Source of the DNA: a virus
Taxonomy: Duplodnaviria > Caudoviricetes
Length of the DNA: 62,327 bases
IMG/VR virus record: IMGVR_UViG_3300042542_002992
Location: 1 to 62,327 of that record
Strand: one strand, 5' to 3'
A model generated the notes under the pieces. It was not told the DNA's origin and searched no databases. It saw nothing but the letters and a program-made list of their open reading frames with translations. This document shows, in pieces, positions 9,677 through 33,627 of this stretch (position 1 is the stretch's first letter; each line of letters begins with the position of its first letter). Position numbers and translations under genes: made by a program.

Positions 9677-10816
9677 ATGACAAAACCAAGTATAGTTTTT
9701 GCCACAATGTGCAAAAACGAAGAACATTGTATTCTCCAAACATTGGAGTCTGTTGCTGATTATATTGATTATTGGGTAGTGTGTGATACTGGCTCTACTG
9801 ATAAGACAATTGAGTTAGTAAAAACATTCTTTGAGGAAAGAAATATCCCTGGAGAATTGCATCAAGACGATTGGGTCGGATTTGACCACAATAAAACCCT
9901 TATGATGGATAGAGCCAAAGGTAAAGCTGATTACATTATGCATTTAGATGCTGATGACCTATTGGTGGGTGACTTTTCGTTCGAAGTTTCAGAGCTTGAA
10001 GATGCTTATTTTATTCCTGTAAAACGTGGTACATCTGAATGGAAAGCTCTGATTATGTTTAATGGAAATCACAGTTGGAAGTTTTGTGGTGTAGCTCATA
10101 CTACTATCAAGAATTTGGATAAACCAAATTATACTACAGGTGATTTATCACATCTTGGATACTACATTTCAGGAGAAGGAATTGGGTCACGAGCATTCGA
10201 CCCCAAGAAGTATTTGTATGATGCTGAGCGATTACAAAAACAATTTTGGGATACGTTGATTAATGATCCTGACGAACTGAATAGTCGTTCGGTATTTTAT
10301 ACAGCCCAAAGTTATATGGACTATGGTATGTATCGTGAAGCTTTACAATGGAATCGTTTGTACCTAAAATTAAAAAATGTATGGATTGAAGAAGTTTTTG
10401 AGGCACATATGCGAAGTTCGGTATGTCTTATGAGACTTGATGCTGACTTGAACGAAATCCTTATGGAAATGAATTCTGCTATTAACTTATTTCCAGACCG
10501 AGCTGAACCATATCTAACTTTAGGTGCTTATTTAAATTCAATCAGTAAGTGGGAAATGGGATATGAGTATTTAAGTAAAGCTCGTACTTTAAGTTTAGAT
10601 TTGGCAAAATCAAAATACATTTTATTTATCAACGAAAAGGCATATGGTAAATATATAAATGATGAACTATCAGTTTCATGTTATTGGACAGGTCGATATG
10701 AAGAAGGTCTTGAATACTTGTCTGAAATTTTGAATGATTCTGATTTCGAATCATCCAAAGATAGATTGCTTGATAACTTAAACCATTTCAATAATAGGTT
10801 GGATGAAAAAAACTGA
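9677..10816 (+). CDS. GT2 glycosyltransferase with C-terminal TPR
   Basis: KNEE, DTGSTD, LDADD; helical FY.AQSY and P.RAEP repeats. Confidence 0.85.
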   Translation: MTKPSIVFATMCKNEEHCILQTLESVADYIDYWVVCDTGSTDKTIELVKTFFEERNIPGELHQDDWVGFDHNKTLMMDRAKGKADYIMHLDADDLLVGDFSFEVSELEDAYFIPVKRGTSEWKALIMFNGNHSWKFCGVAHTTIKNLDKPNYTTGDLSHLGYYISGEGIGSRAFDPKKYLYDAERLQKQFWDTLINDPDELNSRSVFYTAQSYMDYGMYREALQWNRLYLKLKNVWIEEVFEAHMRSSVCLMRLDADLNEILMEMNSAINLFPDRAEPYLTLGAYLNSISKWEMGYEYLSKARTLSLDLAKSKYILFINEKAYGKYINDELSVSCYWTGRYEEGLEYLSEILNDSDFESSKDRLLDNLNHFNNRLDEKN

Positions 10817-12035
10817 TGTATTAATAATTGGTGGTGGTGTTACTGGCCTTTCGTTGGCTTCATATTTGTCTAAAAAAGATTATTTGATTTTAGAAAAAGA
10901 CTCTGAAGTTGGTGGGTATTGTAAAACGGAAATTCGAGGTGAATATACTTGGGATTATTCCGGACACTTTTTTCATTTCAAAAATGAAGAAATCAAAAAT
11001 TATATATTAGAAAACATTGAGTGTGAACTATTAGATGTCAAAAAAATAACGGATATTTCATACAAAGATAAAATTATAGATTTCCCATTTCAATATAATA
11101 TACATCAGTTGGATGAGGTTGAATACAATGAATGTCTTGAAGATTTAAAAAATTGTAAGGATGAAGATACGACTACATTTAAATCCTATGTAAAGTCAAC
11201 ATTAGGAGCCGGTATTTGTAACAAATTTGTAATACCATATAATGAAAAACTATACGCCTGTAATCTTGATACATTGGAGTTTGATTCCATGGGTAGGTTT
11301 TTTCCAAAAATGATTAAGCATGAAGATTTATTAAAATCCCAAAATTCTAAATCATATAACGATAATTTCATATATCCAATTGGTGGAAGCTACGAGTATA
11401 TAAAATCAATTCTAAAAAGAATAGATACCTCAAAAATCAGATTAAATGAGGCCGTATCATCGATTGATTTTGAAAATAAAATTGTCACAACAACGTTGGG
11501 GGATACAATTCAATTTGAAAATCTTGTAAGTACAATCCCATTTAATAAGCTTTTAAGTATAAGTGGTAACCCATGTGACTCACTATCTTCAAATAAAGTA
11601 GCCGTATTCAATTTGGGATTTGACAAAGGTACTGATATAAAAACACATTGGAGATATTTTCCAGGAGAAGAAGTATTTTATAGAGTGGGGTTTTATAACA
11701 ACATATTAAATCAAGAAAAAATGAGTTTATATGTTGAAGTGGGGTTGAGTGAACACCAACTTATAGATTCAGGTGTACTATTAAAATGTGTAATTTCAGA
11801 TTTAAAAAAGTGTGGTATTATAACTAACCATGAGTTAGTAGAGCATCAATTTATTCTTATGAATCCTGCGTATGTACACATTACACAAAAATCAAAGGAA
11901 ACCTATAACAAGTGGTGTTCAGAATACAATAAATTGGGCATTTACTCGATAGGAAGATATGGGTCTTGGACATATTGTTCGATTGAAGACAATATCATAG
12001 ATGCCAAAAATTTATCAGAATCTTTGGAAAATTGA
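10803..12035 (+). CDS. FAD-dependent oxidoreductase (UDP-galactopyranose mutase/protoporphyrinogen oxidase-like)
   Basis: IIGGGVTG, LEK..EVGG, D..GH, PYNEK, GRYG.W.Y. Confidence 0.8.
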   Translation: MKKTDVLIIGGGVTGLSLASYLSKKDYLILEKDSEVGGYCKTEIRGEYTWDYSGHFFHFKNEEIKNYILENIECELLDVKKITDISYKDKIIDFPFQYNIHQLDEVEYNECLEDLKNCKDEDTTTFKSYVKSTLGAGICNKFVIPYNEKLYACNLDTLEFDSMGRFFPKMIKHEDLLKSQNSKSYNDNFIYPIGGSYEYIKSILKRIDTSKIRLNEAVSSIDFENKIVTTTLGDTIQFENLVSTIPFNKLLSISGNPCDSLSSNKVAVFNLGFDKGTDIKTHWRYFPGEEVFYRVGFYNNILNQEKMSLYVEVGLSEHQLIDSGVLLKCVISDLKKCGIITNHELVEHQFILMNPAYVHITQKSKETYNKWCSEYNKLGIYSIGRYGSWTYCSIEDNIIDAKNLSESLEN

Positions 12036-12054
12036 AAATAATTTCGTATATTAA
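12023..12054 (+). promoter_or_regulatory. Bacteroidota-type promoter
   Basis: TTTG(12023)-N20-TATATTAA(12047). Confidence 0.55.
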
Positions 12055-12059
12055 TGGTT

Positions 12060-12470
12060 ATGAAAAAGCAATTAGAACAACTGAAAGAATTCCACACCAC
12101 GTTCAACCATCCGATTGAATTGACACCAACCGCTCAATCCGATGAATTGGCTCAATTGAGATACAAACTTGGTAAAGAGGAGTTGGATGAATATCTTGAA
12201 GCAAATCAAAATGATGACCCCGTTGGTATTGCTGATGCTCTGGCTGACCAACTTTACATTCTTTTAGGTACTATGTTAGTACATGGTATGCAAGATGTGA
12301 TTGAAGAGGTCTTTGATGAAGTTCAACGTTCAAATATGTCAAAGTTGGGTGAGGATGGTAAACCCATCTATCGTGAGGATGGTAAGATACTAAAGGGGCC
12401 GAATTATTCGAAACCAGATATTGGTAAGATTATACACAAAAAATGGGAACTCGATTCCCAAAACAAATAG
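12060..12470 (+). CDS. MazG-like nucleoside triphosphate pyrophosphohydrolase (PRA-PH family)
   Basis: EELDE, ADALADQLY, EVQRSNMSK, REDGKILKGPNY. Alternative start at 12054. Confidence 0.88.
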   Translation: MKKQLEQLKEFHTTFNHPIELTPTAQSDELAQLRYKLGKEELDEYLEANQNDDPVGIADALADQLYILLGTMLVHGMQDVIEEVFDEVQRSNMSKLGEDGKPIYREDGKILKGPNYSKPDIGKIIHKKWELDSQNK

Positions 12471-12683
12471 ATGAAAAAATTTAGAATAATGTTAAGAGGA
12501 GAATCACACCCAGCCCATAAACTTACGGAAGACCAAGTGAAGGCTATCCGTAAACTTTGGGCTATTGGCCATAGAAACATTAGAGTTCTTGCCCGTAATA
12601 ACGGAGTTTCTCCTGCTAACATCAGAAAGATTGTTAAGGGGGAAACTTGGACTCATATTCTAAATTGGCCGTATGAAAATTGA
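12471..12683 (+). CDS. small HTH DNA-binding protein (resembles C-terminal domain of HNH homing endonucleases)
   Basis: RGE.HP..KLT..QV..IR and LA..GVS...I..I..G.TW.H pattern. Confidence 0.7.
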   Translation: MKKFRIMLRGESHPAHKLTEDQVKAIRKLWAIGHRNIRVLARNNGVSPANIRKIVKGETWTHILNWPYEN

Positions 12684-13434
12684 AGGTAAAACCTATTCTG
12701 ATATAAGTAAATTTTCGGTTAGACCGATTTCAAAATCCATTGCAAAGGATATTATTGTTAACAACCACTATAGTGGTATTTGGACAAAGGTATCATATGC
12801 TCTTGGATTGTTTTACAAATCAGAAAGTGACCATCAATTTTTTAGTGGTGTAAATGAAGAGTTGGTCGGAGTTGCTACTTATGGAGACCCCATTGGTAGA
12901 CATTCCGGCCAATCCATTTCGCCAATTCTTGATAGAACTGAAGTTTTAGAACTAACACGTTTATTTGTATTTGATGGTTATGGTTGTAACATTGAAAGTT
13001 GGTTTGTAAGTCAAACTTTCAAATGGTTACGAAATAACGCTCCCCACATAAGAGCCCTTGTATCATATTCAGACCCGAAGGTGGGTCATTTGGGGACTGT
13101 ATACCAATCTACAAATTGGATATATCAAGGTAATAGAATTCGACCAAATGATTCGTGGTCATTCAAGTGGAATGAGGACGAGGAGTGGCATCATAGTAGA
13201 ACCTCATTTGTCAGATACGGAACTAACAATCCAAAAAAAATTCAAGAAATGGTGGACAAACCATTTTGGATTAAGAAAGAACCGAGAAAACATAGATATG
13301 TTTATGTTTTGGATAAGTCACAAAAAAGTCGTATATTGAAGACTCTAAAATACCCATCCTTACCATATCCAAAAGTAAGTGAGGTATTCGAAGAAGAGAT
13401 ACATAAATTAGAACCAATTGAAAGAGGAAAATAA
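12673..13434 (+). CDS. Mom-like GNAT DNA-modification protein 1
   Basis: HYS, GVATYG.P, LELTRL, ESWF, SYSD...GH.G.VYQSTNWIYQG, KHRYVY. Confidence 0.8.
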   Translation: MKIEGKTYSDISKFSVRPISKSIAKDIIVNNHYSGIWTKVSYALGLFYKSESDHQFFSGVNEELVGVATYGDPIGRHSGQSISPILDRTEVLELTRLFVFDGYGCNIESWFVSQTFKWLRNNAPHIRALVSYSDPKVGHLGTVYQSTNWIYQGNRIRPNDSWSFKWNEDEEWHHSRTSFVRYGTNNPKKIQEMVDKPFWIKKEPRKHRYVYVLDKSQKSRILKTLKYPSLPYPKVSEVFEEEIHKLEPIERGK

Positions 13435-14212
13435 ACATTATGTAGACACGTCACGAGTTTTTATTCGTGAGATTAACAAAGCAATTGCAAAAGATATGAT
13501 TGTTACATATCACTATTCGCACGCTTGGACTATGTGTAGATACGCATTGGGGGTGTTCTATAAAACTGATGAGAAAGATATTCTTGGGAATGATGAAAAA
13601 CTGATTGGTGTTGCTGTTTATGGATTTCCAGTTGGAAGGTCTGCTGTAACTTCTATTATTGATGGGTTGGGTAATGACCAATGTTTGGAATTAACACGAT
13701 TGTTTATTCACGATGGGTATGGTTCAAATATTGAGTCATACGCATTAGGACAAACATTCAAGTGGTTAAGAGAGAATGCTCCAAACATAAAAATGCTACT
13801 ATCATATTCAGACCCATTCCAAGGTCATTTAGGGGGTATCTATCGTGCTACGAATTGGTTATTTCAAGATACCAACAAAATACAGCTAATGCCGAATTAT
13901 GGAATTTGTTTGGAAAGTGAAGATGGTCAATATATCCATTCACGGACTGTATTCTCAAGATGGGGTAGTCACAACTTGGAACACCTCAAAACTGAAATTG
14001 GCAAGGATGGATACAAAGAGTTCTGGCGTAGAAAGGAGATGTCTAAACTACGATACATTCAGATTCTACCAACCAATAAGTCGGAGAAGAAGCGTTTGCT
14101 TAAAGCTCTGAAACATCCATGTGAAACACCACCATCTGATATCAAAGACATTTTACCGGCAGCCGAAAGGTATGAAACTTACGAGCCCGAAAATAAAGTG
14201 AATTTTTGGTAA
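13418..14212 (+). CDS. Mom-like GNAT DNA-modification protein 2
   Basis: HYS, GVAVYG.P, LELTRL, SYSDP.QGH.GGIYRATNW; clear paralogue of the upstream gene. Confidence 0.8.
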   Translation: MKEENKHYVDTSRVFIREINKAIAKDMIVTYHYSHAWTMCRYALGVFYKTDEKDILGNDEKLIGVAVYGFPVGRSAVTSIIDGLGNDQCLELTRLFIHDGYGSNIESYALGQTFKWLRENAPNIKMLLSYSDPFQGHLGGIYRATNWLFQDTNKIQLMPNYGICLESEDGQYIHSRTVFSRWGSHNLEHLKTEIGKDGYKEFWRRKEMSKLRYIQILPTNKSEKKRLLKALKHPCETPPSDIKDILPAAERYETYEPENKVNFW

Positions 14213-14217
14213 AAGTG

Positions 14218-14249
14218 TTTGTATATATCAAATTAATTTTGTATCTTTG
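14218..14249 (+). promoter_or_regulatory. Bacteroidota-type promoter for GT/DNA polymerase operon
   Basis: TTTG(14218)-N20-TATCTTTG(14242). Confidence 0.75.
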
Positions 14250-14255
14250 TAAAAT

Positions 14256-15383
14256 ATGTTTTGGGATAGTATAGATTATAATAACGCACGTAAAGTGTTG
14301 GTGATACCAAATATTACCAACTCTTCTAATATTGATAAGGACTCGTTTGTAGATGTGATTCATAATCATATTAAAGCACTCGAATCACATGGAGAATACT
14401 TTTGGAATATATTGATGCCGGTTGGTAAGGTCAGTAAAAAGCTTAATTTACCAAATGTAAAACAACATCAAGTTGAGATTCCTGGTGATATGATGAATCA
14501 GAGGTCATTCCCATCACCAAAACTTATAAACCTACTCAAAGACATTGACTATGATGTAATCTACTCACACTTACCAGATTGGCCGCAAGTGGGTAGGTAC
14601 AAGAAATCAATGGACACTAAAATTGTTGGGTATTGTCATTGGTGGGAAATGAAATCTTGTAATGGGCCGGACAATAGAGCTGGAAAGGCAAAGTGGCTGT
14701 GGTTACCCATGGAGATTCTTGGAGTATCACAAATGGATGTGTGTTACCTTAACACCCAAGACCAAAAGAATAGGGTATTGGATGAAGCATTAGAAATATT
14801 TAATGAAGAATTTGTTCAGAAGTTAGATAGTATTTTAAAAGTTTGGAACTTGGGCGTACCTAAAGATAAGGTGGTAACTGACTTGAAGGATACAAAAGAT
14901 AATGTTATTGTATTCAACCACCGAGCAGCAGCATATAAGGGATATCCAAAGTTTATTGAGTTGATGGAAGAATATCGTACACAACGACAAGATTTTACGG
15001 TATGGATTCCACAATTAACAGGTGATTCGCCACATCCTTGGATTGATAATACAAAAGTACCAAAACACGACTACTATAAACGACTTCAGAATTGTAAGGT
15101 GGGTGTTCAGATGCGTCAAACCAACTATGGATGGTCAGTAAGTGGTACTGATTGTATGATGAACGGAACTCCAATGATTTGGCAAGAATCTGATTGTTAT
15201 CGCGAGATTGACCCTAAAGGAATGTTCTTCAAATATAAGAAGGAATTCTTTGAGTATTTGGATAAAATGTTGGATGATGATACTTTCAGAAAAGAACAAG
15301 ACACATTGTCAGTACAACGAGCTATGGAACTATCTTTGAACGAAGATAAAATGATTAAAGAACTACATAAACAATTAAATTAA
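14256..15383 (+). CDS. GT-B fold glycosyltransferase, possibly DNA-modifying
   Basis: YDVIYSH, IVFNHR...YKG, WSVS..D.M..G.P donor-binding region; coupled to polB by TAATG overlap. Confidence 0.7.
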   Translation: MFWDSIDYNNARKVLVIPNITNSSNIDKDSFVDVIHNHIKALESHGEYFWNILMPVGKVSKKLNLPNVKQHQVEIPGDMMNQRSFPSPKLINLLKDIDYDVIYSHLPDWPQVGRYKKSMDTKIVGYCHWWEMKSCNGPDNRAGKAKWLWLPMEILGVSQMDVCYLNTQDQKNRVLDEALEIFNEEFVQKLDSILKVWNLGVPKDKVVTDLKDTKDNVIVFNHRAAAYKGYPKFIELMEEYRTQRQDFTVWIPQLTGDSPHPWIDNTKVPKHDYYKRLQNCKVGVQMRQTNYGWSVSGTDCMMNGTPMIWQESDCYREIDPKGMFFKYKKEFFEYLDKMLDDDTFRKEQDTLSVQRAMELSLNEDKMIKELHKQLN

Positions 15384-17905
15384 TGTATCAAAATGTTTAC
15401 TACGATAAAGAACAAGGTATCATCCATTGTTGGGATGACCAAAAGGGTTATTTTACAAGCAAGTACCGTAGATATGCTTATGTTAGAGATGGTAATGGTA
15501 CTTTTACTTCTATTCACGGAGAGCGTCTTAAAAAGATAAACTTTTGGAAAAAAGAGGATAATCTCAAACTATACGAATCTGATGTAAACGAGGTAACTCG
15601 GTTTCTGATTGATGAATATGGTGATTCGGATGAGGTATCAAAAGGACATACTATTTTAACTTTCGATATTGAGGTCGAAATGAATAGTGGGTTGCCGGAT
15701 GTTAATAAAGCTGAAAACGAAATCACGTCAATAGCCGGACACGACTCCGTGACCAATGATTACTTTGTGTATGTAGTCAGTAAGGGTGGTAATATCAATA
15801 AAAGAATCAAAGGTGCTGAAGTTCGTTCGTTTGATACTGAAGCAGACCTTTTGGTTGCTTTCTTAAATAAATGGCAAGAAATCAATCCTACAATTGTTAC
15901 AGGTTGGAACATTGACTATTTTGATATTACATACTTGTATAATCGATTGAAAAATGTTGTCGGTGAACGTATGGCTAACAAACTTTCTCCGATTGGTAAG
16001 ATTGGGTATAACAAATATCGTAATCGTTACATTATCGCAGGTGTATCTTGTTTGGACTATCTTGCTCTTTACAAAAACTTTACCTACCAAGAATTTCCAA
16101 ACTATCGATTAGACACCATTGCTAATTTGGTATTGGGTCGTGGTAAGATTGAATACAAAGGTAACCTTGACCAATTATTCAGAGATGATATTGAAAAGTT
16201 TATTGAGTATAACTTGGTCGATGTTGAGTTGGTTGTTGAGATGGATAGAAAACTTCAGTTCATCGAACTTGCTCAAGCGATTTGTCATGCCGGTCACGTT
16301 TTCTATGAGGACTTTTTATTCTCATCAAAATGGTTGGAAGGTGCTATCTTGACGTTCTTGCGTAGAAGTGGTCGTGTTGCTCCTGATAAACCAGATAGGG
16401 CTGATAAAAACGAGGATGGAACTGATGGTGAAGAGAAATTTACCGGTGCTTATGTTAAAGAACCCAAACCGGGTCTTTATAAATGGGTTTATGACTTGGA
16501 TTTAACTTCTCTGTACCCATCAATCATTATGACACTCAATGTTAGTCCTGAAACCAAGATTGGTAAGTTGAAGTCATTTTCGTCAGAGGACTACATGAAA
16601 GATACTATTGATTCTTATGTGATAGTCGAAGAGAATGGTACTGAATATCCACCATTAAACAAGGCTCAGTTCCAAAAATTGATTGAAGATTCAAATTATT
16701 CAATTTCATCAAATGGTGTATTGTACACTCAAGATAAAGTTGGTGTTATTCCTGAAATCTTAAATGTGTGGTTTGACAAACGAGTTGAGTACAAAGACTT
16801 GATGAAGAAATATGGTAAAGAAGGTAACAACGAACTTTACAAATTCTATTCACAACGTCAGTTAGTACAAAAGATTATGTTGAACTCGTTGTATGGTGTA
16901 TTGGGATTACCCTCATTCAGATTCTATGATGTGGATAATGCTGAAGCAACTACAATCACGGGTCAGACTGTTATTAAAACTACCGAGAAGATAGCTAACC
17001 AATATTACACCAAAATTATTGGTAGAGATGGTGACTATAATGTGTACACCGATACGGACTCGGTATTCTATCAGGCGCTTCCTTTGGTTCAAGCCAGAAA
17101 CCCAAACATTGACCCCACGTCAGATGAACAAATGGTTCCCGCTATTTTGTCAGTAGCTAAAGAGGTTCAAGAACACATTAATAAGGTTTACGACACTATG
17201 TCGAAAAAACTATTCAATGTTAATTCTCACCGATTTGATATCAAACAAGAAACTATCGCAAAGGGTGGATTTTGGGTATCAAAGAAACGATACGCTCAAT
17301 GGATTATCAATGATAATACCGTACCATGTGATAAGATGGATGTAAAGGGGCTTGATGTTCGTAGGTCTTCTTTTCCAACTTACTTTAAGAAAGTCATGGA
17401 GACTGTACTTTTGGATATTCTAAAGGGTGTTGACAAATCTGAAATCGACACTAAACTGATTGACTTCAAAGACAAAATGTCAGACCAAAACTTCGTTGAT
17501 ATTGCAAAGAATTCCGCTGTAAAGGATATGTCAAAATACATCAAGAAACGTACTGTATATTCTTTGAACGAGTTTGAAAAGGGAACTCCAGCCCACGTTA
17601 AGGCAGCCATAACTTACAATCGATTGTTGAAGTTTTATGATGCACCTTACAAGTATGAACCAATGAAGGATGGTGACAAGATTAAGTGGGTATATCTAAA
17701 ACGAAATCCCATGGGGATTGAAGCCACAGCGTTCACCGGTCACAATGACCCATCTCAAATTGAAGATTTGATTAGACAACACATCGATGTTGACTTGATT
17801 TGGGAAAAGGAGTTAGAAAATAAGATTACCGACTTCTACAACGCAATGGGGTGGGATAAACCAAATCCGAATCTTGCGAAGGCATCACAATTCTTTGGAT
17901 TCTAA
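15383..17905 (+). CDS. family B DNA polymerase (T4 gp43-like)
   Basis: FDIE and GWN..FD exonuclease motifs; DLTSLYPS, KIMLNSLYG, YTDTDS, KKRY polymerase motifs. Confidence 0.97.
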   Translation: MYQNVYYDKEQGIIHCWDDQKGYFTSKYRRYAYVRDGNGTFTSIHGERLKKINFWKKEDNLKLYESDVNEVTRFLIDEYGDSDEVSKGHTILTFDIEVEMNSGLPDVNKAENEITSIAGHDSVTNDYFVYVVSKGGNINKRIKGAEVRSFDTEADLLVAFLNKWQEINPTIVTGWNIDYFDITYLYNRLKNVVGERMANKLSPIGKIGYNKYRNRYIIAGVSCLDYLALYKNFTYQEFPNYRLDTIANLVLGRGKIEYKGNLDQLFRDDIEKFIEYNLVDVELVVEMDRKLQFIELAQAICHAGHVFYEDFLFSSKWLEGAILTFLRRSGRVAPDKPDRADKNEDGTDGEEKFTGAYVKEPKPGLYKWVYDLDLTSLYPSIIMTLNVSPETKIGKLKSFSSEDYMKDTIDSYVIVEENGTEYPPLNKAQFQKLIEDSNYSISSNGVLYTQDKVGVIPEILNVWFDKRVEYKDLMKKYGKEGNNELYKFYSQRQLVQKIMLNSLYGVLGLPSFRFYDVDNAEATTITGQTVIKTTEKIANQYYTKIIGRDGDYNVYTDTDSVFYQALPLVQARNPNIDPTSDEQMVPAILSVAKEVQEHINKVYDTMSKKLFNVNSHRFDIKQETIAKGGFWVSKKRYAQWIINDNTVPCDKMDVKGLDVRRSSFPTYFKKVMETVLLDILKGVDKSEIDTKLIDFKDKMSDQNFVDIAKNSAVKDMSKYIKKRTVYSLNEFEKGTPAHVKAAITYNRLLKFYDAPYKYEPMKDGDKIKWVYLKRNPMGIEATAFTGHNDPSQIEDLIRQHIDVDLIWEKELENKITDFYNAMGWDKPNPNLAKASQFFGF

Positions 17906-18516
17906 TGAGTGTTACCAATTACATAGTAGAACCATGTCCACGAAGTGAAATTGCTAATTTTGTGGAAACACATCACTATTCAAAAAATATGAATGGATTA
18001 CACATTTCATATTGTTTTAAGTTGATGGATGGTAATACTATGATTGGTGCTATGGTGTATGGTTCTTTGGGGATGGTTGGTGTTGCTGAAAAATATACAA
18101 CCAACCCATCAAAACTTTTAGAGTTGAAACGGCTCGTTTGTATTGATGAAACCCCAAAGAATACCGAATCGTATTTTATAGGTTGGACTCTTCGCTGGTT
18201 ACAACGAAATACCGATTTGGAAATGATAATCTCATATGCTGATAAAACATTTGGACACGAAGGTGTTGTGTATAAGGCAACAAACTTCGAGTACAAAGGA
18301 GAGACTTCAGCTGGAAGAGTAATAATGTGGAATGGTCGTAGGTATCATGACAAAACATTGAGAAACAAACACAATGGGAAATTAAAACCCATTGCTATTG
18401 AATTGAAAAACGCATTGGAGAGTGGAGAAGCGACATACGTTGATACCTTGACGAAAAACATCTACGTCTATCGTTTCAAAAAAAGAAAACAAAAAATTCA
18501 CCAATGGTTTGGATAA
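17905..18516 (+). CDS. Mom-like GNAT DNA-modification protein 3
   Basis: HHYS, GAMVYG, LELKRL, NTESYFIG..LRWL, SYAD..FGH.G.VYKATNF.Y.G. Confidence 0.8.
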   Translation: MSVTNYIVEPCPRSEIANFVETHHYSKNMNGLHISYCFKLMDGNTMIGAMVYGSLGMVGVAEKYTTNPSKLLELKRLVCIDETPKNTESYFIGWTLRWLQRNTDLEMIISYADKTFGHEGVVYKATNFEYKGETSAGRVIMWNGRRYHDKTLRNKHNGKLKPIAIELKNALESGEATYVDTLTKNIYVYRFKKRKQKIHQWFG

Positions 18517-18539
18517 TTCAGGATTATTTCGTATATTCG
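18508..18539 (+). promoter_or_regulatory. Bacteroidota-type promoter for sliding clamp operon
   Basis: TTTG(18508)-N20-TATATTCG(18532). Confidence 0.65.
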
Positions 18540-18560
18540 TAACAAATAAAAAATAAAAAC

Positions 18561-19256
18561 ATGAAAAAAAGTTCATTTGAAGGGTTTGTAGCCCGTTACA
18601 ACTTGGGTGGTGAGGTTGAATCCGTAAAAATCAACTCAACCGATGAAGGAATGTCTGTTCGATTCATCTCCGATGACAAAACCCTATTGGGTAGTGTTGA
18701 GACTGAAGAAAAAGAGTTCCCAAATGGTGAGTTTGGTGTTTACACGACATCACAACTAAAAGGTCTGCTTGGCGTTTTGGATTCTAACGTTAAAGTAGAA
18801 CAAGGTGAGGCATCCTTGGTTTTTTCAGACAATGGTACGTCTGTAAACTATATGTTGGCTGACCTTTCGGTTATTCCTGTAGTTCCCGAATTAAAACAAC
18901 TTCCCGATTTTGGTTCATCAGTAACACTTGATGACGAGTTCGTGGCTAAGTTTATTAAATCTAAAGGTGCTTTGAGTGATTCAGACACATTTACATTTAA
19001 GTGTAAAGGAAACAAAGGTGAGGTGATTTTGGGTTACTCTAAAATTAACTCAAACCGAATCTCTATCAATGTCGAGTGCACGTGTGCTTCTGACGTTGAA
19101 CCAATTTCATTCTCCGCCAAATATCTTAAAGAAATCCTCAATGCTAACCGAGGTGCTAAAGCTTCTTCGTTGAAGATTTCGTCTCAAGGTCTGGCTCATG
19201 TTGCTTTTGAACATGATGGGTTTAAGTCAAACTATTATTTGGTAGAGATTAAGTAA
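18561..19256 (+). CDS. DNA polymerase sliding clamp (gp45/PCNA-like)
   Basis: 231 aa; EFGVY, F...YL and ISSQG...F....YYL patterns; lies between polymerase and clamp loader. Confidence 0.8.
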   Translation: MKKSSFEGFVARYNLGGEVESVKINSTDEGMSVRFISDDKTLLGSVETEEKEFPNGEFGVYTTSQLKGLLGVLDSNVKVEQGEASLVFSDNGTSVNYMLADLSVIPVVPELKQLPDFGSSVTLDDEFVAKFIKSKGALSDSDTFTFKCKGNKGEVILGYSKINSNRISINVECTCASDVEPISFSAKYLKEILNANRGAKASSLKISSQGLAHVAFEHDGFKSNYYLVEIK

Positions 19257-20443
19257 TGTTTTGGGATACTGAACCGGCGAAACCGGAATTCAACTACATG
19301 GATGAAAAGAAAAAGTTCATAGATAATATGGACTATCTTTCATCTATGTCAGTAGAAGAACAAACTCTTTACAAAAAATGGGAAGAGTGGAATTCCGACC
19401 TACCATCCTCTATGAAGAGGAAGGCTGCTATGGCTACTTATATTGATTCTTTGTGGATGCCAACTGACATCTACAATAAAGAACAAACCATAAAAGAAGT
19501 CATGGCACTCGAACCCTATGTAGAGATTGTTGATGATTCAAAAGAATCTACTCGTTGGACTGAAATCCGTAAACTCATTCACACCATGGCTTTTTCAGCC
19601 AATCCAGGTCGTAACGTTAAGATTTACGTTAAAGATAGGGTAAGTGGTAAAGTGTTGGGTATGATTTCGCTCGGTTCAGATGTCACCTCTTTGGGTGTTA
19701 GGGATTCCTATATTGGTTGGACTCAAGATAACAAGTATAAAGATGGAAAGTTAAACCACACTACGATTGCAACTACAATCGTATGTACACAACCATTGGG
19801 TTATAACTTTTTGGGTGGTAAACTTATTGCTTGTATGGCCACGTCTCCTATTGTACGACAATATTGGAAAGACAAATATGGTCAGACGTTGATTGCAGTT
19901 GGAACTACATCTTTATATGGAATCCATTCACAATATAATGGAATCCCTCACTTCAAAACACTTGGTGAATCCGCAGGTAAAGTTGCTATTAAACCAGATG
20001 ATTCTGTATATGAAGTATGGCATCATTGGTTAAAGGATAACAAGTCTGAAGAGTACATGAGACAAACTGCCGAAAAGGAGAATGTTGATGGACCTGCTAC
20101 CGGAGTAAAACAAAAAATTATCAATATGATATTCAAAGAACTTGGTATCAAGGCTTCTAAATATCAACATGGATTTAAGAGGGGTGTATACTTTGCTCAA
20201 ATGTATGAAAATGGTAATGAGTTTCTCCGAAACGAAATCACCGAGGACCAGTTGGTATTGAAAGATAAGTTCGCAAAAGGTGACCAATACACTATGGATT
20301 GGTGGAAGAAGAAGGCTGTTTCTCGTTATGAAAAACTACATGATGAGGGTCGTATTAAACCTGAACCATTGTTTTATCTTGATATTATTGGTATGTCTTG
20401 GGAGGCTGCAAAAGAAAAGTATTTAAACGAAGTAGGAAGATGA
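19256..20443 (+). CDS. DUF4338 / Druantia DruA-like protein
   Basis: PGR...V.D..SGKVLG.I.LGS.V..L.VRD.YIGW, P.GYN.LGGKL.A, TTSLYG..SQYN, LGE..G motifs. Confidence 0.75.
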   Translation: MFWDTEPAKPEFNYMDEKKKFIDNMDYLSSMSVEEQTLYKKWEEWNSDLPSSMKRKAAMATYIDSLWMPTDIYNKEQTIKEVMALEPYVEIVDDSKESTRWTEIRKLIHTMAFSANPGRNVKIYVKDRVSGKVLGMISLGSDVTSLGVRDSYIGWTQDNKYKDGKLNHTTIATTIVCTQPLGYNFLGGKLIACMATSPIVRQYWKDKYGQTLIAVGTTSLYGIHSQYNGIPHFKTLGESAGKVAIKPDDSVYEVWHHWLKDNKSEEYMRQTAEKENVDGPATGVKQKIINMIFKELGIKASKYQHGFKRGVYFAQMYENGNEFLRNEITEDQLVLKDKFAKGDQYTMDWWKKKAVSRYEKLHDEGRIKPEPLFYLDIIGMSWEAAKEKYLNEVGR

Positions 20444-21354
20444 GTAATACACTATGGGTTGAAAAATATAGACCCGATACGTTAGAAGGTTATGTTGGTA
20501 ACGAACATATCCTTGAAAAAGTAAAGATTTACATCCAAAATGAGGATGTACCACACTTGTTATTGTATGGTCAAGCCGGTACGGGTAAAACCACATTGGC
20601 TAAAATCATAACAAATCAGATTGATTGTGATGTTATGTACATCAATGCTTCTGATGAAAACAACGTTGACACTGTTCGTGATAAGATTCGAGGTTTCGCA
20701 TCATCCATGGGATTCCGTAAATGGAAAATCATCATCTTGGATGAGTCTGATTACTTGACACCAAACGCACAAGCAGCTCTTCGAAATCTGATGGAAACTT
20801 TTAGTAAGTCGACTCGATTTATTTTGACGTGTAATTATGTTGAAAAAATCATCGACCCAATCCAATCAAGATGTCAGACATTCGCTATCACCCCACCATC
20901 AAAGAAGGATGTTGCAAAACGACTCAATGAAATTCTAAATCAAGAAGGTGTTGAGTTTGAAATGTCAGATTTGGCTGTGATTGTTAATAGTGGATATCCC
21001 GACATTCGTAGGGTATTGAACGCTGCTCAACGACAAGTCATTAATGGTAAGTTGGTAATAGACAAACAATCTACGATTCAAGCAAACTACGCAGAAGAAG
21101 TTGTTAAGGTTCTTCAGAGTAGTAGTGATGCTAAATCTAAATTTGTGAGTATCCGACAAATTATCGCTGATTCCGGCGTCAAGGATTTCACTCCGTTGTA
21201 TCGTTTGTTGTACGACCGAGTTGATGATTATGCTAACAACAAAGTGGGTCAGACTATCTTAAACATCGCAGATGGTCAATACAAAGACACCATGGTAGTG
21301 GACAAAGAAATAAATGTAATGGCGATGATGTTGAATATTATAACAAGTATCTAA
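20440..21354 (+). CDS. clamp loader AAA+ subunit (gp44/RFC small subunit)
   Basis: WVEKYRP, GQAGTGKTT, INASDE, LDESD, QAALR, QSRC. Confidence 0.95.
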   Translation: MSNTLWVEKYRPDTLEGYVGNEHILEKVKIYIQNEDVPHLLLYGQAGTGKTTLAKIITNQIDCDVMYINASDENNVDTVRDKIRGFASSMGFRKWKIIILDESDYLTPNAQAALRNLMETFSKSTRFILTCNYVEKIIDPIQSRCQTFAITPPSKKDVAKRLNEILNQEGVEFEMSDLAVIVNSGYPDIRRVLNAAQRQVINGKLVIDKQSTIQANYAEEVVKVLQSSSDAKSKFVSIRQIIADSGVKDFTPLYRLLYDRVDDYANNKVGQTILNIADGQYKDTMVVDKEINVMAMMLNIITSI

Positions 21355-21356
21355 AA

Positions 21357-21629
21357 ATGGCAAAAGGTAAAGTAATCGAAATGGGTAAGAAATCTAATGA
21401 GGCTATGAAAATGCAATTAGACCCATTTAAACTAAAGACAGTAGAATGTCCTAATTGTGAAGGTATCTTCTTCACCGAGGTAAATATGTTTAAAGAAGTT
21501 CCTGCTTTACAATCACCAACCGGTCAAGCATCACTGCTACCAATTCCCGTTGTGATTTGTAACGAATGTGGAACTGTACATCCTAAATTTACACCGAAAG
21601 AACTATTTGAAAATGGCGAAGAAAAGTGA
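21357..21629 (+). CDS. zinc-ribbon protein
   Basis: CPNC...CNECG. Confidence 0.7.
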   Translation: MAKGKVIEMGKKSNEAMKMQLDPFKLKTVECPNCEGIFFTEVNMFKEVPALQSPTGQASLLPIPVVICNECGTVHPKFTPKELFENGEEK

Positions 21630-22068
21630 TGAAAATGTCGTAAAGGCAAAATCACTTTTTGACCACCTTGGGGGGATTACCTACAAAAAAGATAAGTGGG
21701 AATCCCTCTCCGAGATGGACAAGAAATCCTTTGAGATGTATATGGTCAATCGATTTCTATCTATGAATCTTGACTACCTTGAATTAGTAAATGAGATTCA
21801 ACGCTATACTAATGGTCAGTTGAAACCTCGTGAACTATATAAAGTGTATTTAGATACATTGCCAAAAAAGAAATCGTTCGATAAATACGTCAAGGGTAAG
21901 TCTGAATCGAAGTGGGACAAAAATGTGATAAAGTACCTTTGTCAGTATTACCAAGTATCATCTCGTGAAGTAGAAGACTATCTTGAAATCTTATCAAAGG
22001 ATGAGGTGTTGACAATCATACAAAAATACGGAATCAAAAAAGAAGAAATACAAAAATGGCTGAAGTAA
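21613..22068 (+). CDS. clamp loader accessory subunit (gp62-like)
   Basis: F..YMVNRFLSM, PKKK.F.KY.K, YY.VS.RE..DYL.IL; position after gp44. Confidence 0.75.
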   Translation: MAKKSDENVVKAKSLFDHLGGITYKKDKWESLSEMDKKSFEMYMVNRFLSMNLDYLELVNEIQRYTNGQLKPRELYKVYLDTLPKKKSFDKYVKGKSESKWDKNVIKYLCQYYQVSSREVEDYLEILSKDEVLTIIQKYGIKKEEIQKWLK

Positions 22069-22463
22069 TTAAAGAAGCAAAGACAAAAGTAGAGTGGACT
22101 AAAGAAGAAGTCTTAAATACACCAGATATGAGCGCTCGCTCCTATTGTGAGCAATATTATCCTGAAACTACTGAAGAGTATAAGAGGATTATGTGGGAAC
22201 AATACGAAACCTTTTGTAAAAAACAACGTAACTATGGTCCGGGTAACATCTCGGTTGGTACTGCTCTTGCTACCAAAGATGATGTTAAACTATCTCATAC
22301 CGGATTGTGGTTTAGAATCAATGATAAAGTTCAGAGACTAAAACAAATGATTGTTTTGGGTCAGCCGGATGAGGTTGGAGAATCGGTTCAAGATACATTT
22401 GCTGACCTTTCAGTATATGGTATCATTGCTCAGATTGTTCAGAACGGAAAGTGGGGAAAATAA
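22056..22463 (+). CDS. DUF1599 / nucleotide-modification-associated domain 1 (MazG-like fold)
   Basis: KKQRNYG..NI, FRINDKVQRL, ESVQDTFADLSVYGII. Confidence 0.75.
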   Translation: MAEVIKEAKTKVEWTKEEVLNTPDMSARSYCEQYYPETTEEYKRIMWEQYETFCKKQRNYGPGNISVGTALATKDDVKLSHTGLWFRINDKVQRLKQMIVLGQPDEVGESVQDTFADLSVYGIIAQIVQNGKWGK

Positions 22464-22512: not shown

Positions 22513-23460
22513 ATGAAAAAATCACTTGTTTCCAACATATTCAGTTTTCCAACGTATGAAGAGAAGAAAGAACACTCCAAGGTGTCTTACTCTCAATACA
22601 CCATGTGGGCTAATTGCCCAAAACAATGGAAACTTACATATATGGATGGTCACAAGAAAGATGAGTCATCTATACATTTGATTTTTGGTACTGCTATGCA
22701 CGAGGTTGTTCAAGAATGGCTTAACGTCATTTACAACGATAGTGTTAAATCCGCTGAAGAGATGGACTTAAACACCATGTTACGAGATACCATGGCTTCC
22801 GAGTATAAGAAAGCCATGGCTATCTATGGTGTTAAGTTTACATCACGAGAACAAATGAATGAGTTTTATCAAGATGGTGTTGAGATTCTAAACTTTCTAC
22901 AAAAGAAACGAGGTGAATATTTCAGTACACGTCATTATAAACTTGTTGGTATTGAGTTACCCATCTACCACCCTACCGATACAAATGAAAATGTAATGAT
23001 GAAGGGATTCCTTGATTTGGTATTCGAAGACGTTACAATGAATCGTATTGTAATCTTTGATATCAAAACATCAACTAATGGGTGGAACAAGTACCAAAAG
23101 GCAGATAAAACCAAAACCGCTCAGTTGGTATTGTATAAGAAGTTTTTCTCTAAACAATACGGATATCCGGTGGATAATATCCAAGTTAAATATTTCATCC
23201 TTAAACGTAAGTTATATGAGGAAGTTATGTTTGCTCAAAGTAGAATTCAAGAATTTGAACCTGCTGCTGGGAGTGTGACTTTAAAACAAATATCTACTAA
23301 TTTCGAAACCTTTATCAAGTCAGCGTTTAACGATGATGGTTCTTATAGGACTGATGGTACGTTTCCAGCTATGGCAGGTGATAAAGGTAAGAATTGTAAA
23401 TATTGTCCATTCAAGGATAATCATGACCTTTGTGCAAAAGCAGAGAGGCATAAAGTGTAA
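22513..23460 (+). CDS. PD-(D/E)XK exonuclease (RecB/Cas4-like)
   Basis: SYSQ...CP, FGTAMH, E...GFLD...DIKTS, QL.LY, CKYCPF...C. Confidence 0.88.
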   Translation: MKKSLVSNIFSFPTYEEKKEHSKVSYSQYTMWANCPKQWKLTYMDGHKKDESSIHLIFGTAMHEVVQEWLNVIYNDSVKSAEEMDLNTMLRDTMASEYKKAMAIYGVKFTSREQMNEFYQDGVEILNFLQKKRGEYFSTRHYKLVGIELPIYHPTDTNENVMMKGFLDLVFEDVTMNRIVIFDIKTSTNGWNKYQKADKTKTAQLVLYKKFFSKQYGYPVDNIQVKYFILKRKLYEEVMFAQSRIQEFEPAAGSVTLKQISTNFETFIKSAFNDDGSYRTDGTFPAMAGDKGKNCKYCPFKDNHDLCAKAERHKV

Positions 23461-24509: not shown

Positions 24510-24535
24510 TATTTATTAGAAATAGAGTTACGATA
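24510..24535 (+). promoter_or_regulatory. late-type TATTTAT motif plus leader, near-duplicate of 59071-59096
   Basis: TATTTATTAGAAATAGAGTTACGATA vs TATTTATTATAAATGGAGTTACGATA, 24/26 identical. Confidence 0.55.
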
Positions 24536-25953
24536 TGCAAGAATTAAAATTACCTAAACTTAAAAAGGTAGACCCAAATCGTCCAAAAAAGAAGAAGATT
24601 CTTTTATTGTCAGATGACTTGAGACTACATAGCGGAATCGCTACACAATCCAAAGAGATTGTTATTTCAACATTACATAAATACGATTGGGTACAATTAG
24701 GCGCTGCCTTAAAACATCCTGACCATGGTAAAGTTTTTGATGTATCTGAAGATGCTTCAAAAGAAGCTGGTATTGAAGATGGTAGTGTTAAGATTTATGC
24801 ACATACGGGATATGGTAATCCCGAAGTTTTACGAGAATTGATAAACGTTGAAAAGCCAGATGCTATCATGCACTTCACCGACCCTCGTTTTTGGGGATGG
24901 TTATATGACATGGAGCTTGAGGTTCGTCAATTCTTACCTATTATTTACTACAATATTTGGGACGATTTACCAGACCCAATGTGGAATGCTCCGTTCTATG
25001 CAAGTTGTGACCAATTGATTTCGATTTCAAAACAAACATATGGTATCAACAAAAGAGTTTTGGAAAAGTATGGTATGCCAAAAGAAGATTGGTGTTACAA
25101 GTATATTCCACATGGTGTATCAAAGATGTTCTATCCATTACCATCAGATGATTCAAATCTTGTTAACTTTAAGAAACAATATGGTCTTGACAAGTATGAC
25201 TTTGTAGTTTTATGGAATAATAGAAACATTCGTAGAAAATCTCCAGGTGACGTAGTTCTTGCATTCAATGAGTTTGCCAAACGTAACCAAGATAAGAAAG
25301 TTTGTTTATTCATGCACACCGAACGTGTTTCAGAACATGGTACTGATATACCTGAAGTAATCAAAATGAATGGTGAGTTTGGTGATTACAAGTTTACAAA
25401 CGGCCCCATGTCAACTCAAGACCTAAATCTATATTATAATTCGGGTGACATCATTCTAAATGTTGGTTCTAACGAGGGATTTGGTTTGGCTTCGTGTGAA
25501 GCTCTACGAGCCGGAACTCCTATTATCGTTAACATTACTGGTGGATTACAAGACCAGTGTGGTTTCGAATTATTTGGATTACCATTGGGTGCCGAAAATT
25601 ATGTAGAGATTGGGTCATTACACAATGATAGAGAATGGAAGGGTTCAAGTGACTTATCTTCAGGTGTATGGTCGTTTCCAGTATGGCCGAGTAATAGGTC
25701 ATTACAAGGGTCTCCGATGACTCCTTATATTTTTGATGACCGATGTGATTATTACGATGTTGCTCTTGAACTTCAAAATGCATTTGAGATGGGTAGAGAG
25801 AAATTAGAAATCTATGGCCAAAAAGGACATGAGTGGGTTATTGGTGATGGTGATATGGCATCTGAAACCATGGGTCTGAAGTTTATTGACGCATTTGAGG
25901 ATTGTTTTAAAAATTGGACACCTCGTAAACGATTTGATATTTATAAAGCATGA
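24535..25953 (+). CDS. GT4 glycosyltransferase
   Basis: IPHG, NRNIRRK, NEGFGL..CEA..AGTPII...TGGL.DQ. Confidence 0.9.
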   Translation: MQELKLPKLKKVDPNRPKKKKILLLSDDLRLHSGIATQSKEIVISTLHKYDWVQLGAALKHPDHGKVFDVSEDASKEAGIEDGSVKIYAHTGYGNPEVLRELINVEKPDAIMHFTDPRFWGWLYDMELEVRQFLPIIYYNIWDDLPDPMWNAPFYASCDQLISISKQTYGINKRVLEKYGMPKEDWCYKYIPHGVSKMFYPLPSDDSNLVNFKKQYGLDKYDFVVLWNNRNIRRKSPGDVVLAFNEFAKRNQDKKVCLFMHTERVSEHGTDIPEVIKMNGEFGDYKFTNGPMSTQDLNLYYNSGDIILNVGSNEGFGLASCEALRAGTPIIVNITGGLQDQCGFELFGLPLGAENYVEIGSLHNDREWKGSSDLSSGVWSFPVWPSNRSLQGSPMTPYIFDDRCDYYDVALELQNAFEMGREKLEIYGQKGHEWVIGDGDMASETMGLKFIDAFEDCFKNWTPRKRFDIYKA

Positions 25954-27227: not shown

Positions 27228-27675
27228 TTTTAAAAGTCAACATAGGGTAAGAATGACCGACCCCACTCCGATTTCTAAAAGTAAATTGGAGAGGGGTATG
27301 GTTGCTAAAGTCAGATACAAAAAAGTATCAGGTGACATAGAAGAATATTTTGTATTTGTTCTACAACCAAAGTATATGGATTATTTCCATTGTATCGACT
27401 TGAAATACATCAAACCTAATGTATTTGAAAAGTTAGCGGAAGAATATCCCGAGATAAAAAGTACAAGTTCGAAGGTAAAGAAATTAGATTTAACAAAACT
27501 TCAGATAAACGAGAGTTCAAAACAATTCTACATGGCCGAAATCAAACGTAAAAAGTTGAGTGAAGGTTATAGAACTTTTGTAGAACGTAACATCACATCT
27601 ATAATTGTATTCAATTACAAATATGGTAAGTTTGATAGAATCGCACCCGAACAAGAACGAGAACAAATAGATTAA
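27220..27675 (+). CDS. hypothetical protein, weakly T4 gp2 (DNA end protector)-like
   Basis: Basic 151 aa; VFVL...FHCIDLKYI and YRTF resemble the gp2 family only loosely. Confidence 0.35.
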   Translation: MADFKSQHRVRMTDPTPISKSKLERGMVAKVRYKKVSGDIEEYFVFVLQPKYMDYFHCIDLKYIKPNVFEKLAEEYPEIKSTSSKVKKLDLTKLQINESSKQFYMAEIKRKKLSEGYRTFVERNITSIIVFNYKYGKFDRIAPEQEREQID

Positions 27676-27679
27676 GATT

Positions 27680-28306: not shown

Positions 28307-28358
28307 ACGAACGTTTTGGAGACGAAACGTGTGTCATAAAGAAAATTTTTAATTTCCT

Positions 28359-31823: not shown

Positions 31824-31836
31824 TTTTGTATATTAG
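31805..31836 (+). promoter_or_regulatory. Bacteroidota-type promoter inside glycan island
   Basis: TTTG(31805)-N20-TATATTAG(31829). Confidence 0.65.
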
Positions 31837-33626: not shown

Positions 33627-33627
33627 T

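Follow-up and report, generated by a model that had tools for sequence, protein, structure and literature searches.

Gene content of the locus

The stretch of DNA considered here, called the window below, is the whole of IMG/VR record IMGVR_UViG_3300042542_002992 (62,327 bases; completeness estimate 34%). Three genes of the Mom family, one gene of the DruA/DUF4338 family and one gene for a GT-B-fold glycosyltransferase (GT) lie in it among genes of DNA replication (Table 1). The segment is best explained as a replication module, that of an uncultured T4-like myophage (~180 kb if complete), with accessory DNA-modification genes inserted. The T4-type replication set of the window comprises a gp32-like protein, RecA/UvsX, a 5'-3' exonuclease, a DnaB-like helicase, a family-B polymerase (PolB), the sliding clamp and the clamp loader gp44/gp62, and both subunits of ribonucleotide reductase and a thioredoxin are also encoded. 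Nearly every gene is on the + strand, and GC content ranges from 31 to 41% in 2-kb intervals. In a search with PolB, the closest cultured phage was Microcystis phage Mel-JY01 (48.5% identity), and the remaining matches were at ~31-33%. The order of genes in the clamp-loader segment (20398..22068), where PF16790 was also matched, is that of Mel-JY01.

Genes in the window were called with Pfam, PHROG, PADLOC and NCBIfam profiles, AlphaFold2 (AF2) models, and structure searches by Foldseek and VIA-align. A first-pass annotation, made from the sequence, had listed three Mom-like genes, a DUF4338-like gene, a GT and a MazG gene at ~12060; profile and fold matches place all of them where it had put them. 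It had also described them as interspersed among the genes of PolB, clamp and clamp loader, often with stop/start overlaps, and the coordinates of the open reading frames (ORFs) bear this out, with overlaps of 1-17 nucleotides (nt). One nt is shared at the GT-B/PolB, PolB/Mom3 and clamp/DruA junctions, and longer overlaps join HTH70 to Mom1 (11 nt), Mom1 to Mom2 (17 nt) and gp62 to the DUF1599-like gene (13 nt). No NCBIfam family matched any of the Mom, DruA, GT-B or MazG proteins, and a promoter and terminator scan, whose counts were equal to chance, was uninformative.

Table 1. Genes of the replication segment and the matches by which they were assigned (E, E-value; aa, amino acids; HTH, helix-turn-helix; pLDDT, predicted local distance difference test)
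Gene	Position	Strand	Evidence
MazG1	12054-12470	+	PF01503 E 1e-16, 61.5 bits (cut-off 21.3); phrog_671 E 1.8e-42
HTH70 (70 aa)	12471-12683	+	weak HTH_28/HTH_38 matches
Mom1	12673-13434	+	PF25680 E 5.4e-46, 157.2 bits; PDB 8bv8 (Mu Mom) E 1e-12
Mom2	13418-14212	+	PF25680 E 3.3e-47, 161.2 bits
GT-B, GT4-like	14256-15383	+	AF2 pLDDT 85.3 and Foldseek; Pfam GT4 23.7 bits (cut-off 28.5)
PolB, gp43-like	15383-17905	+	PF00136/PF03104; phrog_262 E 3e-192
Mom3	17905-18516	+	PF25680 E 1.7e-35, 123.0 bits; phrog_1384 E 2.5e-54
Sliding clamp, gp45-like	18561-19256	+	phrog_223 E 1.1e-11; syntenic with the Mel-JY01 gene between PolB and clamp loader
DruA/DUF4338-like	19256-20443	+	PF14236 E 4.9e-25, 88.7 bits (cut-off 27); PADLOC DruA PDLC00002 E 1.5e-24
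Clamp loader gp44	20398 (or ATG 20440)-21354	+	phrog_168 E 3e-82
orf90	21357-21629	+	between gp44 and gp62
Clamp loader gp62	21568-22068	+	phrog_225
DUF1599-like	22056-22463	+	PF07659 21.4 bits, under 25-bit cut-off; phrog_1485 (function-unknown family)

Three Mom paralogs in one phage

Exactly three matches to the Mom family PF25680 were found in the whole 62-kb record, all of them over the gathering cut-off of 27.1 bits. Mom1 shares 46% identity with Mom2, and Mom3 shares 24-27% with either; the three paralogs are 24-29% identical to Mom of phage Mu. It had been stated earlier that Mom normally occurs as one gene. Indeed, in a collection of 50,697 phage records, all 315 cultured records matching Mom1 and all 313 matching Mom3 have a single Mom place. 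Several Mom genes in one phage are thus a real and unusual feature. In Mel-JY01, a search found neither a Mom gene nor a DruA match.

The chemistry of Mom is known from Mu. As reported in PMC13219725 (2026), Mu Mom moves glycine from Gly-tRNAGly to the N6 of adenine in double-stranded DNA (dsDNA) post-replicatively, and a rearrangement on the base after the transfer gives the product 6-NcmdA. The modification is described there as confined to the context S-A-S, which covers ~20% of A (PMC13219725). R111, S124 and R151 are given as essential (R151A is dead), and D149, H58, Y59 and Y159 as important; the abstract singles out R111 and S124 as essential, picked partly through conservation across metagenomes (PMC13219725). 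The same source describes Mu Mom as a tight W48-dependent dimer whose monomeric W48A variant is almost inactive, reports that a helical (HTH-like) insertion of residues 175-209 is needed for activity, and calls two metagenome-mined Mom homologs active (PMC13219725). The first-pass annotation had taken acetyl-CoA to be the donor and had named the lack of an acetyl-CoA pocket as a refuting observation. That donor is outdated, going by the Mu work (PMC13219725), and the test is moot because Mu Mom uses Gly-tRNA. tRNA genes were sought in the window as a pointer to the Mom donor, and none was found.

Residues were compared in a four-way alignment with Mu Mom, whose sequence was taken from the Mu record. 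H58, Y59, R111, N121, E123, S124, D149 and Y159 (Mu numbering) are common to all three paralogs. Ortholog sets of 24 Mom1, 34 Mom2 and 8 Mom3 unique sequences were then scored. These residues are present in 24/24 Mom1 orthologs, and the catalytic residues in 8/8 Mom3 orthologs. In Mom2, R111, S124 and Y159 are found in 34/34 and D149 in 31/34 (N in the other 3), with gaps at positions 58/59 in 2/34. The three paralogs also align through the 175-209 region with insertions and deletions, H183 and T186 being invariant, as seen in the sequence alignment alone. Judged from these alignments, the three paralogs retain residues required by Mu Mom catalysis and differ at position 151.

The relation to Mu Mom (PF25680; PDB 8BV8) is thus one of a common Pfam family and, by alignment, a common GNAT core, the alignment running on through the region of the helical insertion; R111, S124, H58, Y59 and Y159 are kept, as is D149 except in those 3/34 Mom2 sequences. 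The differences are several. Mu has one copy, whereas three are found per genome here; R151 and W48 are not retained; Mom2 and Mom3 have C-terminal aromatic tails that Mu Mom lacks; and the setting is a lytic T4-like phage, beside replisome genes. In place of a Com-type zinc-finger regulator, a conserved HTH70 gene lies upstream. The PHROG families matched by HTH70 (E 7e-5 to 4e-4) correspond to the DNA-binding C-terminal part of HNH endonucleases.

The paralogs differ in their affinities. The best cultured match of Mom1 is in Polaribacter phage P12002L (43.7%), others being at <=34%. Mom3 shares 52-57% identity with Mom-like genes from phages of Bacillus, Geobacillus, Corynebacterium, Enterococcus and Staphylococcus and from two Synechococcus phages, and it is a separate, later addition from a widespread Mom subfamily. 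Mom-restriction endonuclease (REase) fusions or pairs have been described in jumbo phages, with a restriction-modification-like use of Mom (PMC7824862). Those systems and that of cyanophage DSL-LC03 share with the present case a Mom-family enzyme in a large lytic phage, but the Moms here have neither a fused nuclease nor a specifically paired one. The PD-(D/E)XK gene at 22513-23460 belongs to the backbone and is common to Mel-JY01 (47% identity). In Synechococcus phage DSL-LC03 (locus L101, 1924-3094), the gene upstream of a Mom3-like gene, which it overlaps, carries the annotation type II restriction endonuclease; the two make a pair like those of the jumbo phages.

C-terminal tails and the sliding clamp

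The C-terminus of PolB reads ..KASQFFGF, and an FFxF end is found in 21/22 unique tails of relatives. It lies past the thumb region, which aligns to residues 722-887 of the 903 residues of RB69 gp43 (query 183 = chain 887). Mom2 ends in an acidic extension of ~30 aa (..PENKVNFW), and in 15/15 unique Mom2 tails an [FY]W end follows a variable acidic linker. Mom3 has a basic tail (..KRKQKIHQWFG) with a WF[GV] end in 5/6 unique tails, the exception being the 28%-identical Mom-like gene of L075/L076; this 10-aa tail is missing in the cyanophage homologs of S-SSM7 and DSL-LC03. An aromatic pair was seen in 0/20 unique tails of Mom1. Two adjacent aromatics within the last five residues occur in just 5/77 window ORFs, namely Mom2, PolB, Mom3 and two small ORFs. 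By sequence, then, the conserved aromatic ends of Mom2 and Mom3 are like the tail of the polymerase, a putative T4-type clamp-binding epitope. The replisome link proposed in the first-pass annotation thereby gains a concrete, if sequence-level, basis.

In T4, the clamp ligands gp43, gp55 and gp33 are described as having hydrophobic, acidic C-termini in common after divergent linkers, and the RB69 clamp was co-crystallised with 11 C-terminal polymerase residues (both as given in PMC2988020). The likeness lies in a hydrophobic motif at the very C-terminus, preceded by an acidic linker that varies, on the polymerase and on other proteins of the same phage alike. The difference is that the putative carriers here are DNA base-modifying enzymes, and that the likeness is one of sequence. 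Tethering of this kind has a precedent in the disputed claim that T4 alpha-glucosyltransferase binds gp45, which, according to a 2025 preprint, was not reproduced with C-terminally tagged enzymes (10.64898/2025.12.06.692756). A query with gp55 of phage Mosig, the late sigma factor, used to look for a clamp epitope in this clade, had no match in 5 relatives, an empty result that is not evidence of absence. Among eukaryotes, the DNMT1-PCNA pair is a functional analogue of a clamp-tethered DNA-modifying enzyme.

Two further features of C-termini were seen. Mom1 orthologs keep the motif ..E-I-(H/Y)-K-L-(E/D)-P-I.. at their own C-terminus (..IHKLEPI.. in the window). The two small ORFs mentioned above overlap each other (56903-57283 and 57271-57723; 126 and 150 aa) and end in ..IEYWWS and ..NGNFW, like PolB, Mom2 and Mom3. 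Neither has a PHROG match or a known family. By their tails they are further candidate ligands of the clamp, such as late-transcription factors.

GNAT fold of the DruA-family protein

The DruA-like protein belongs to a large family, with 2,974 homologs in 90% clusters (1,138 representatives at 50%) at E <=0.001. An AF2 model built from a 45-row alignment has a pLDDT of 94.7 and predicts a GNAT-fold core at residues ~80-342, with helical N- and C-terminal parts on either side. When this model was compared by VIA-align with 48,161 PDB representatives, the top match was Mu Mom (8bv8_B; Z 10.0, root-mean-square deviation 3.9, 167 residues, model 80-327). The next 49 chains are GNAT or GNAT-related acetyl- or acyltransferases (Z 8.8-7.4, model ~80-342). 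Foldseek gave weak matches to p300/CBP and GNAT chains (E 2e-4 to 1e-2), and a PDB sequence search gave one chance match (E 0.73). On the model, the fold of the DruA-family protein is that of a GNAT, and the solved structure nearest to it is Mom. A near-invariant stretch, Q179-P-x-G182...G187-G188-K189, follows the strand 169-177 and may be a GNAT motif-A-like loop. The domain DUF4338 is also termed a GNAT domain in a passage of PMC10853773. A literature search found nothing that joins Mom, DUF4338 and phage, or DruA with GNAT by name.

Among ten longer representatives, six have a fused domain: ParB_N in 3, and a uracil-DNA glycosylase (UDG), DUF3102 and LAGLIDADG domain in 1 each. The fusions to ParB_N, UDG-superfamily, DUF3102 and LAGLIDADG domains suggest that the role of the DruA domain is, in general, DNA-directed. 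N-terminal fusions to the DruA domain are found in proteins P0246, P0254, P0255, P0271, P0260 and P0386.

With DruA of type I Druantia, the protein shares the PF14236 and PADLOC DruA match (E ~1e-24). In contrast to Druantia, no DruE/YprA-type helicase or other Druantia model was found by Pfam among the ORFs scanned (19-38470), the gene is encoded by a phage rather than a host, it is coupled to GT-B and Mom genes, and its neighbours are replication and glycan genes. It is therefore a solitary phage DruA-family gene and not a Druantia system.

DruA-like genes also occur in other settings. Those of pelagiphages Mosig and HTVC008M and of loci L086-L095 have no Mom or GT-B neighbours, and DruA-like genes without Mom or this GT are also found in cyanophages. 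A DruA-like coding sequence is reported in six Synechococcus phages in the Phold preprint. In Synechococcus phage S-SCSM2R, the DruA-like gene lies between gp44 and gp62 and is annotated as 'methylcarbamoylase mom'. In Pelagibacter phage Mosig (L083, 6896-8591), a MazG-domain gene starts 4 nt after the DUF4338 gene, and 2OG-Fe(II) oxygenase genes lie just upstream.

The glycosyltransferase and the sugar question

The GT that the first-pass annotation had placed at 14256 stands as far as its predicted fold is concerned, but its Pfam GT4 and GT1 scores are under the cut-offs. The GT-B fold of the AF2 model has a Foldseek probability of 1.00. The top matches are MshA, BshA, PglA and sucrose-phosphate synthase (E 7e-12 to 1e-10), with template modelling (TM) scores of 0.6-0.69 to MshA, BshA and PglA, which are retaining GT4 enzymes. 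A PDB sequence search gave 0 matches. On this model, the gene product is a GT-B/GT4-like glycosyltransferase, and the fold search gave no match pointing specifically to a DNA glycosyltransferase. The glycosyltransferase of phage HY126 (chain 9iqz_A), whose DNA is reported to carry arabinosylated 5-hydroxycytosine (PMC13326640), came at rank 15, amid generic GT4 matches. The known DNA glycosylation systems, namely T4 alpha- and beta-GT on 5-hydroxymethylcytosine and RB69/HY126 arabinosyl-5-hydroxycytosine, likewise have a GT-B enzyme beside replication genes. They differ in that generic GT4 enzymes match the present GT-B better, and that no base hydroxylase or hydroxymethylase was found here. 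A complex prediction for DruA with GT-B gave a score of 0.00 against a mark of 0.32; run without controls, it is uninformative either way.

A hydroxymethyl-pyrimidine was considered as the sugar acceptor and rejected. A thymidylate-synthase-family gene is present in 4/5 near-complete relatives, the one that was checked (L097) passes the ThyA equivalog cut-offs, and ThyX is absent in 5/5.

The window has other sugar-related genes. The cluster at 24535-38470 holds two GT1-type GTs, GT2s, a fusion of an HMGL-like domain with a CMP-sugar cytidylyltransferase, an FkbM methyltransferase, a further methyltransferase, an MptE-like protein, a DegT aminotransferase and a GT29 sialyltransferase-like protein. 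The whole resembles a cluster for synthesis and transfer of nonulosonic acid, and its GT1 pair is common to Mel-JY01. Just upstream of MazG1 (9677-12035) lie a GT2 with a weak match to SunS-type peptide S-glycosyltransferase and, after it, an FAD amine-oxidase/PRK07208-like oxidoreductase. Among the loci of at least 12 kb described below, the latter was found only in L006.

Gene order in relatives

The DruA-like protein was used to scan IMG/VR; 104 candidate stretches contained 102 relatives, and 80 were retained. Gene order was surveyed in the 36 IMG/VR loci >=12 kb, with adjacencies counted on non-redundant loci; distances between DruA, GT-B and Mom were counted on 29 non-redundant loci with >=3 kb on both sides of DruA. 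The backbone PolB-clamp-gp44-(orf90)-gp62 is constant in the 36 loci, and the accessory genes shift as blocks. In a large sub-clade (~54% PolB identity), the order is Trx-HTH70-Mom1-Mom2-DruA(-GT-B)-PolB. It is PolB-clamp-DruA-GT-B-gp44 in L028-L030 and L069, and PolB-clamp-Mom-like-Mom2-GT-B-DruA-gp44 in L075 and L076. Mom3 between PolB and clamp was seen in the window and in only 3/36 loci (L006, L013, L016).

HTH70 and Mom1 are adjacent in 22/22, and Mom1 and Mom2 in 21/22 non-redundant loci, and the Mom1-Mom2 tandem is present in 5/5 near-complete relatives (94-100% complete), with Mom3 too in 2/5. Across the clade, HTH70-Mom1-Mom2 is strictly conserved as a unit. The DruA-like gene and GT-B often adjoin each other directly, and often the Mom pair as well. 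GT-B directly adjoins DruA in 11/29 loci (7 downstream, 4 upstream) and lies within 3 kb without adjoining it in 2/29; a Mom gene is within 3 kb of DruA in 19/29, and Mom2 is directly upstream of it in 11/29. The GT-B found upstream of DruA is a 28-32%-identical type, and where GT-B directly follows DruA the spacer is often 1 nt. In L016 (~3200-4780), a second DruA-like match, 25% identical, lies between Mom2 and GT-B.

The first-pass annotation had proposed a synteny survey, and the survey supports the view that these genes travel together. It also qualifies the interleaving with the replisome, which is present in the window but is specific to a sub-lineage, because HTH70-Mom1-Mom2-DruA(-GT-B) forms one block upstream of PolB in most relatives. 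The two MazG-fold pyrophosphatases that it had listed fared differently. The first (12054-12470) has a clear PRA-PH match; by tblastn it was found only in L006, L008, L016 and L021 among the loci >=12 kb, and it is an accessory gene of the closest relatives. For the second (22056-22463) there is only the sub-threshold DUF1599 match. It is a backbone gene rather than part of a Mom/DruA modification set, since Mel-JY01, which has neither Mom nor DruA, has a homolog of 52% identity in the same position after gp62.

Other genes of the window and the probable host

At 41884-43860, a protein of 658 aa is encoded that has a cohesin domain and a C-terminal sorting domain of type IX secretion (Por_Secre_tail, E 5.5e-8). 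Because of this protein, the affinity of Mom1 to a Polaribacter phage and the low GC content, the host is probably a member of the Bacteroidota. At 59098-61320, an HNH endonuclease gene is followed by a phage GroEL chaperonin gene (phrog_5725, E 1e-162), and in the relative G001 a GroEL fragment adjoins ThyA.

Interpretation and alternative readings

The reading favoured here, to which about an even chance is given, is that of a replication module with inserted DNA-modification genes, in which several Mom-type enzymes modify adenine, two of them tethered to the clamp, and DruA and GT-B form a separable module. The gene set points to a DNA modification not yet described, which may be coupled to replication. 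By analogy to Mu Mom, a charged tRNA would supply the amino acid that each Mom places on the exocyclic amine of adenines in the dsDNA of the phage. The paralogs would differ in sequence context, and perhaps also in donor or base, and jointly they might cover more of the AT-rich genome than one context-limited enzyme. Mom2 and Mom3 would ride the sliding clamp by their tails, and modification would then reach the new duplex just behind the fork, ahead of host nucleases. The DruA-like GNAT and GT-B may act as a second, separable DNA-directed module; MazG1 may be an optional helper acting on the nucleotide pool, and the DUF1599-like gene would simply be phage backbone.

A number of observations weigh against this reading. 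On the side of the Moms, R151 of Mu is not retained (Mom1: 22 K, 2 V; Mom2: 28 G, 5 F, 1 E; Mom3: T), nor is the dimer residue W48, position 48 being S, N, D or A in the paralogs. As far as the Mu study goes (PMC13219725), tRNA dependence is established for Mu Mom alone. The clamp-tail reading is built on short motifs found post hoc. The residue before the FF of PolB and that before the FW of Mom2 are K/K in 11 cases, Q/N in 4, mixed in 4 and unscorable in one; this agreement follows phylogeny and is therefore not independent evidence. On the side of DruA, the lead of Mu Mom over ordinary GNATs is only 1.2 Z units, and DruA against Mom was non-significant in hhalign (probability 0.2% with a 4-sequence and 0.5% with a 16-sequence Mom profile), so the relation between DruA and Mom is one of fold. 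No GT-B lies within 3 kb of DruA in 16/29 non-redundant loci, and L048 has HTH70-DruA with no Mom within 10 kb. Finally, GT-B may serve glycans rather than DNA, because at least 7 other glycosyltransferases and a nonulosonic-acid-like sugar-nucleotide cluster are encoded in the window.

A rival view is that unrelated accessory genes have piled up in insertion-tolerant gaps of an early or replication cluster and that the aromatic tails have no connection with the clamp. The Moms would then be ordinary DNA modifiers, the DruA-like protein would acetylate a protein or act in counter-defence, and GT-B would belong to the glycan repertoire. The backbone order, identical to that of Mel-JY01 with the extra genes as insertions, fits this account, as do the many GTs nearby and the 16/29 loci with no GT-B within 3 kb of DruA, and the position of the DruA-like gene of S-SCSM2R between gp44 and gp62 suggests an insertion hot spot. 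However, the same genes stay adjacent through rearrangements and while PolB diverges to ~54% identity, the terminal [FY]W is kept in 15/15 Mom2 tails despite the varying linker, and the fusion partners of DruA are DNA-directed domains. Such accumulation is a possible but doubtful explanation. Another view, that of the first-pass annotation, is one multi-step pathway in which a Mom paralog places an aminoacyl-derived adduct on a purine, the DruA-like protein and GT-B acylate or glycosylate it, and MazG1 clears a competing nucleotide. In many relatives (e.g., L044, L068, L063, L057), HTH70-Mom1-Mom2-DruA-GT-B is indeed one tight contiguous block; the direct adjacency of the DruA gene to Mom2 and, in both orders and often at a 1-nt spacing, to GT-B agrees with a pathway, as do the Mom-like fold of DruA and the MazG gene directly after the DUF4338 gene in Mosig. 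Against it, DruA-like genes occur without Mom and this GT in pelagiphages, cyanophages and L086-L095, the Mom pair is ~20 kb away from DruA-GT-B in some relatives (e.g., G003, the genome of L030), and DruA occurs with Moms and without GT-B in the flank in L038, L040, L041, L050, L079 and L080. Neither is a route to the classic sugar acceptor apparent, with a true ThyA and no ThyX in relatives and no hydroxymethylase, nor does the Mu adduct, which is described as ending in an amide, have an evident glycosyl acceptor (PMC13219725). A pathway joining all seven genes is unsupported, and the pathway reading as a whole is considered unlikely.

It is also conceivable that Mom1 and Mom2 form an obligate heterodimer, in which one subunit is catalytic and the other provides DNA or tRNA specificity or tethering to the clamp. 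Mu Mom is reported to be a tight homodimer that is almost inactive as the W48A monomer (PMC13219725), the two genes adjoin and overlap in 21/22 loci, and of the pair only Mom2 has the aromatic tail. Yet both proteins have the full catalytic set, W48 is conserved in neither, and Mom2 is present without Mom1 in L065 and L074, which argues for independent specificities of Mom1 and Mom2 rather than an obligate pair. This arrangement is regarded as improbable. A more far-reaching reading concerns a widespread clade of uncultured T4-like phages. It would decorate its DNA with several Mom-type adducts derived from aminoacyl-tRNA, or with one in several contexts; polymerase-like tails would bring the enzymes to the clamp and so couple modification to the fork, and the Mom-fold DruA-family GNAT with its GT4 partner would elaborate the product or add a second, glycosylated purine adduct as yet undescribed. 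This version is regarded as quite unlikely.

Implications

Mom has recently been recognized as a tRNA-dependent DNA aminoacyl-transferase, and three diverged paralogs with intact residues offer a ready panel for specificity towards donor, base and context. The polymerase-like tails on two of the Moms make an old and disputed idea, that DNA-modifying enzymes ride on the sliding clamp, testable. The Mom-shaped DruA-family protein, the fusions of its relatives to ParB and UDG domains, and its coupling to a GT in abundant phages lead to a hypothesis of nucleic-acid acylation for an uncharacterised component of Druantia. If true, the clamp-coupled multi-adduct reading with DruA and GT4 would be the first functional clue to Druantia DruA. 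Such modifications affect evasion of restriction and CRISPR by phages, and they can bias the detection of these phages by sequencing.

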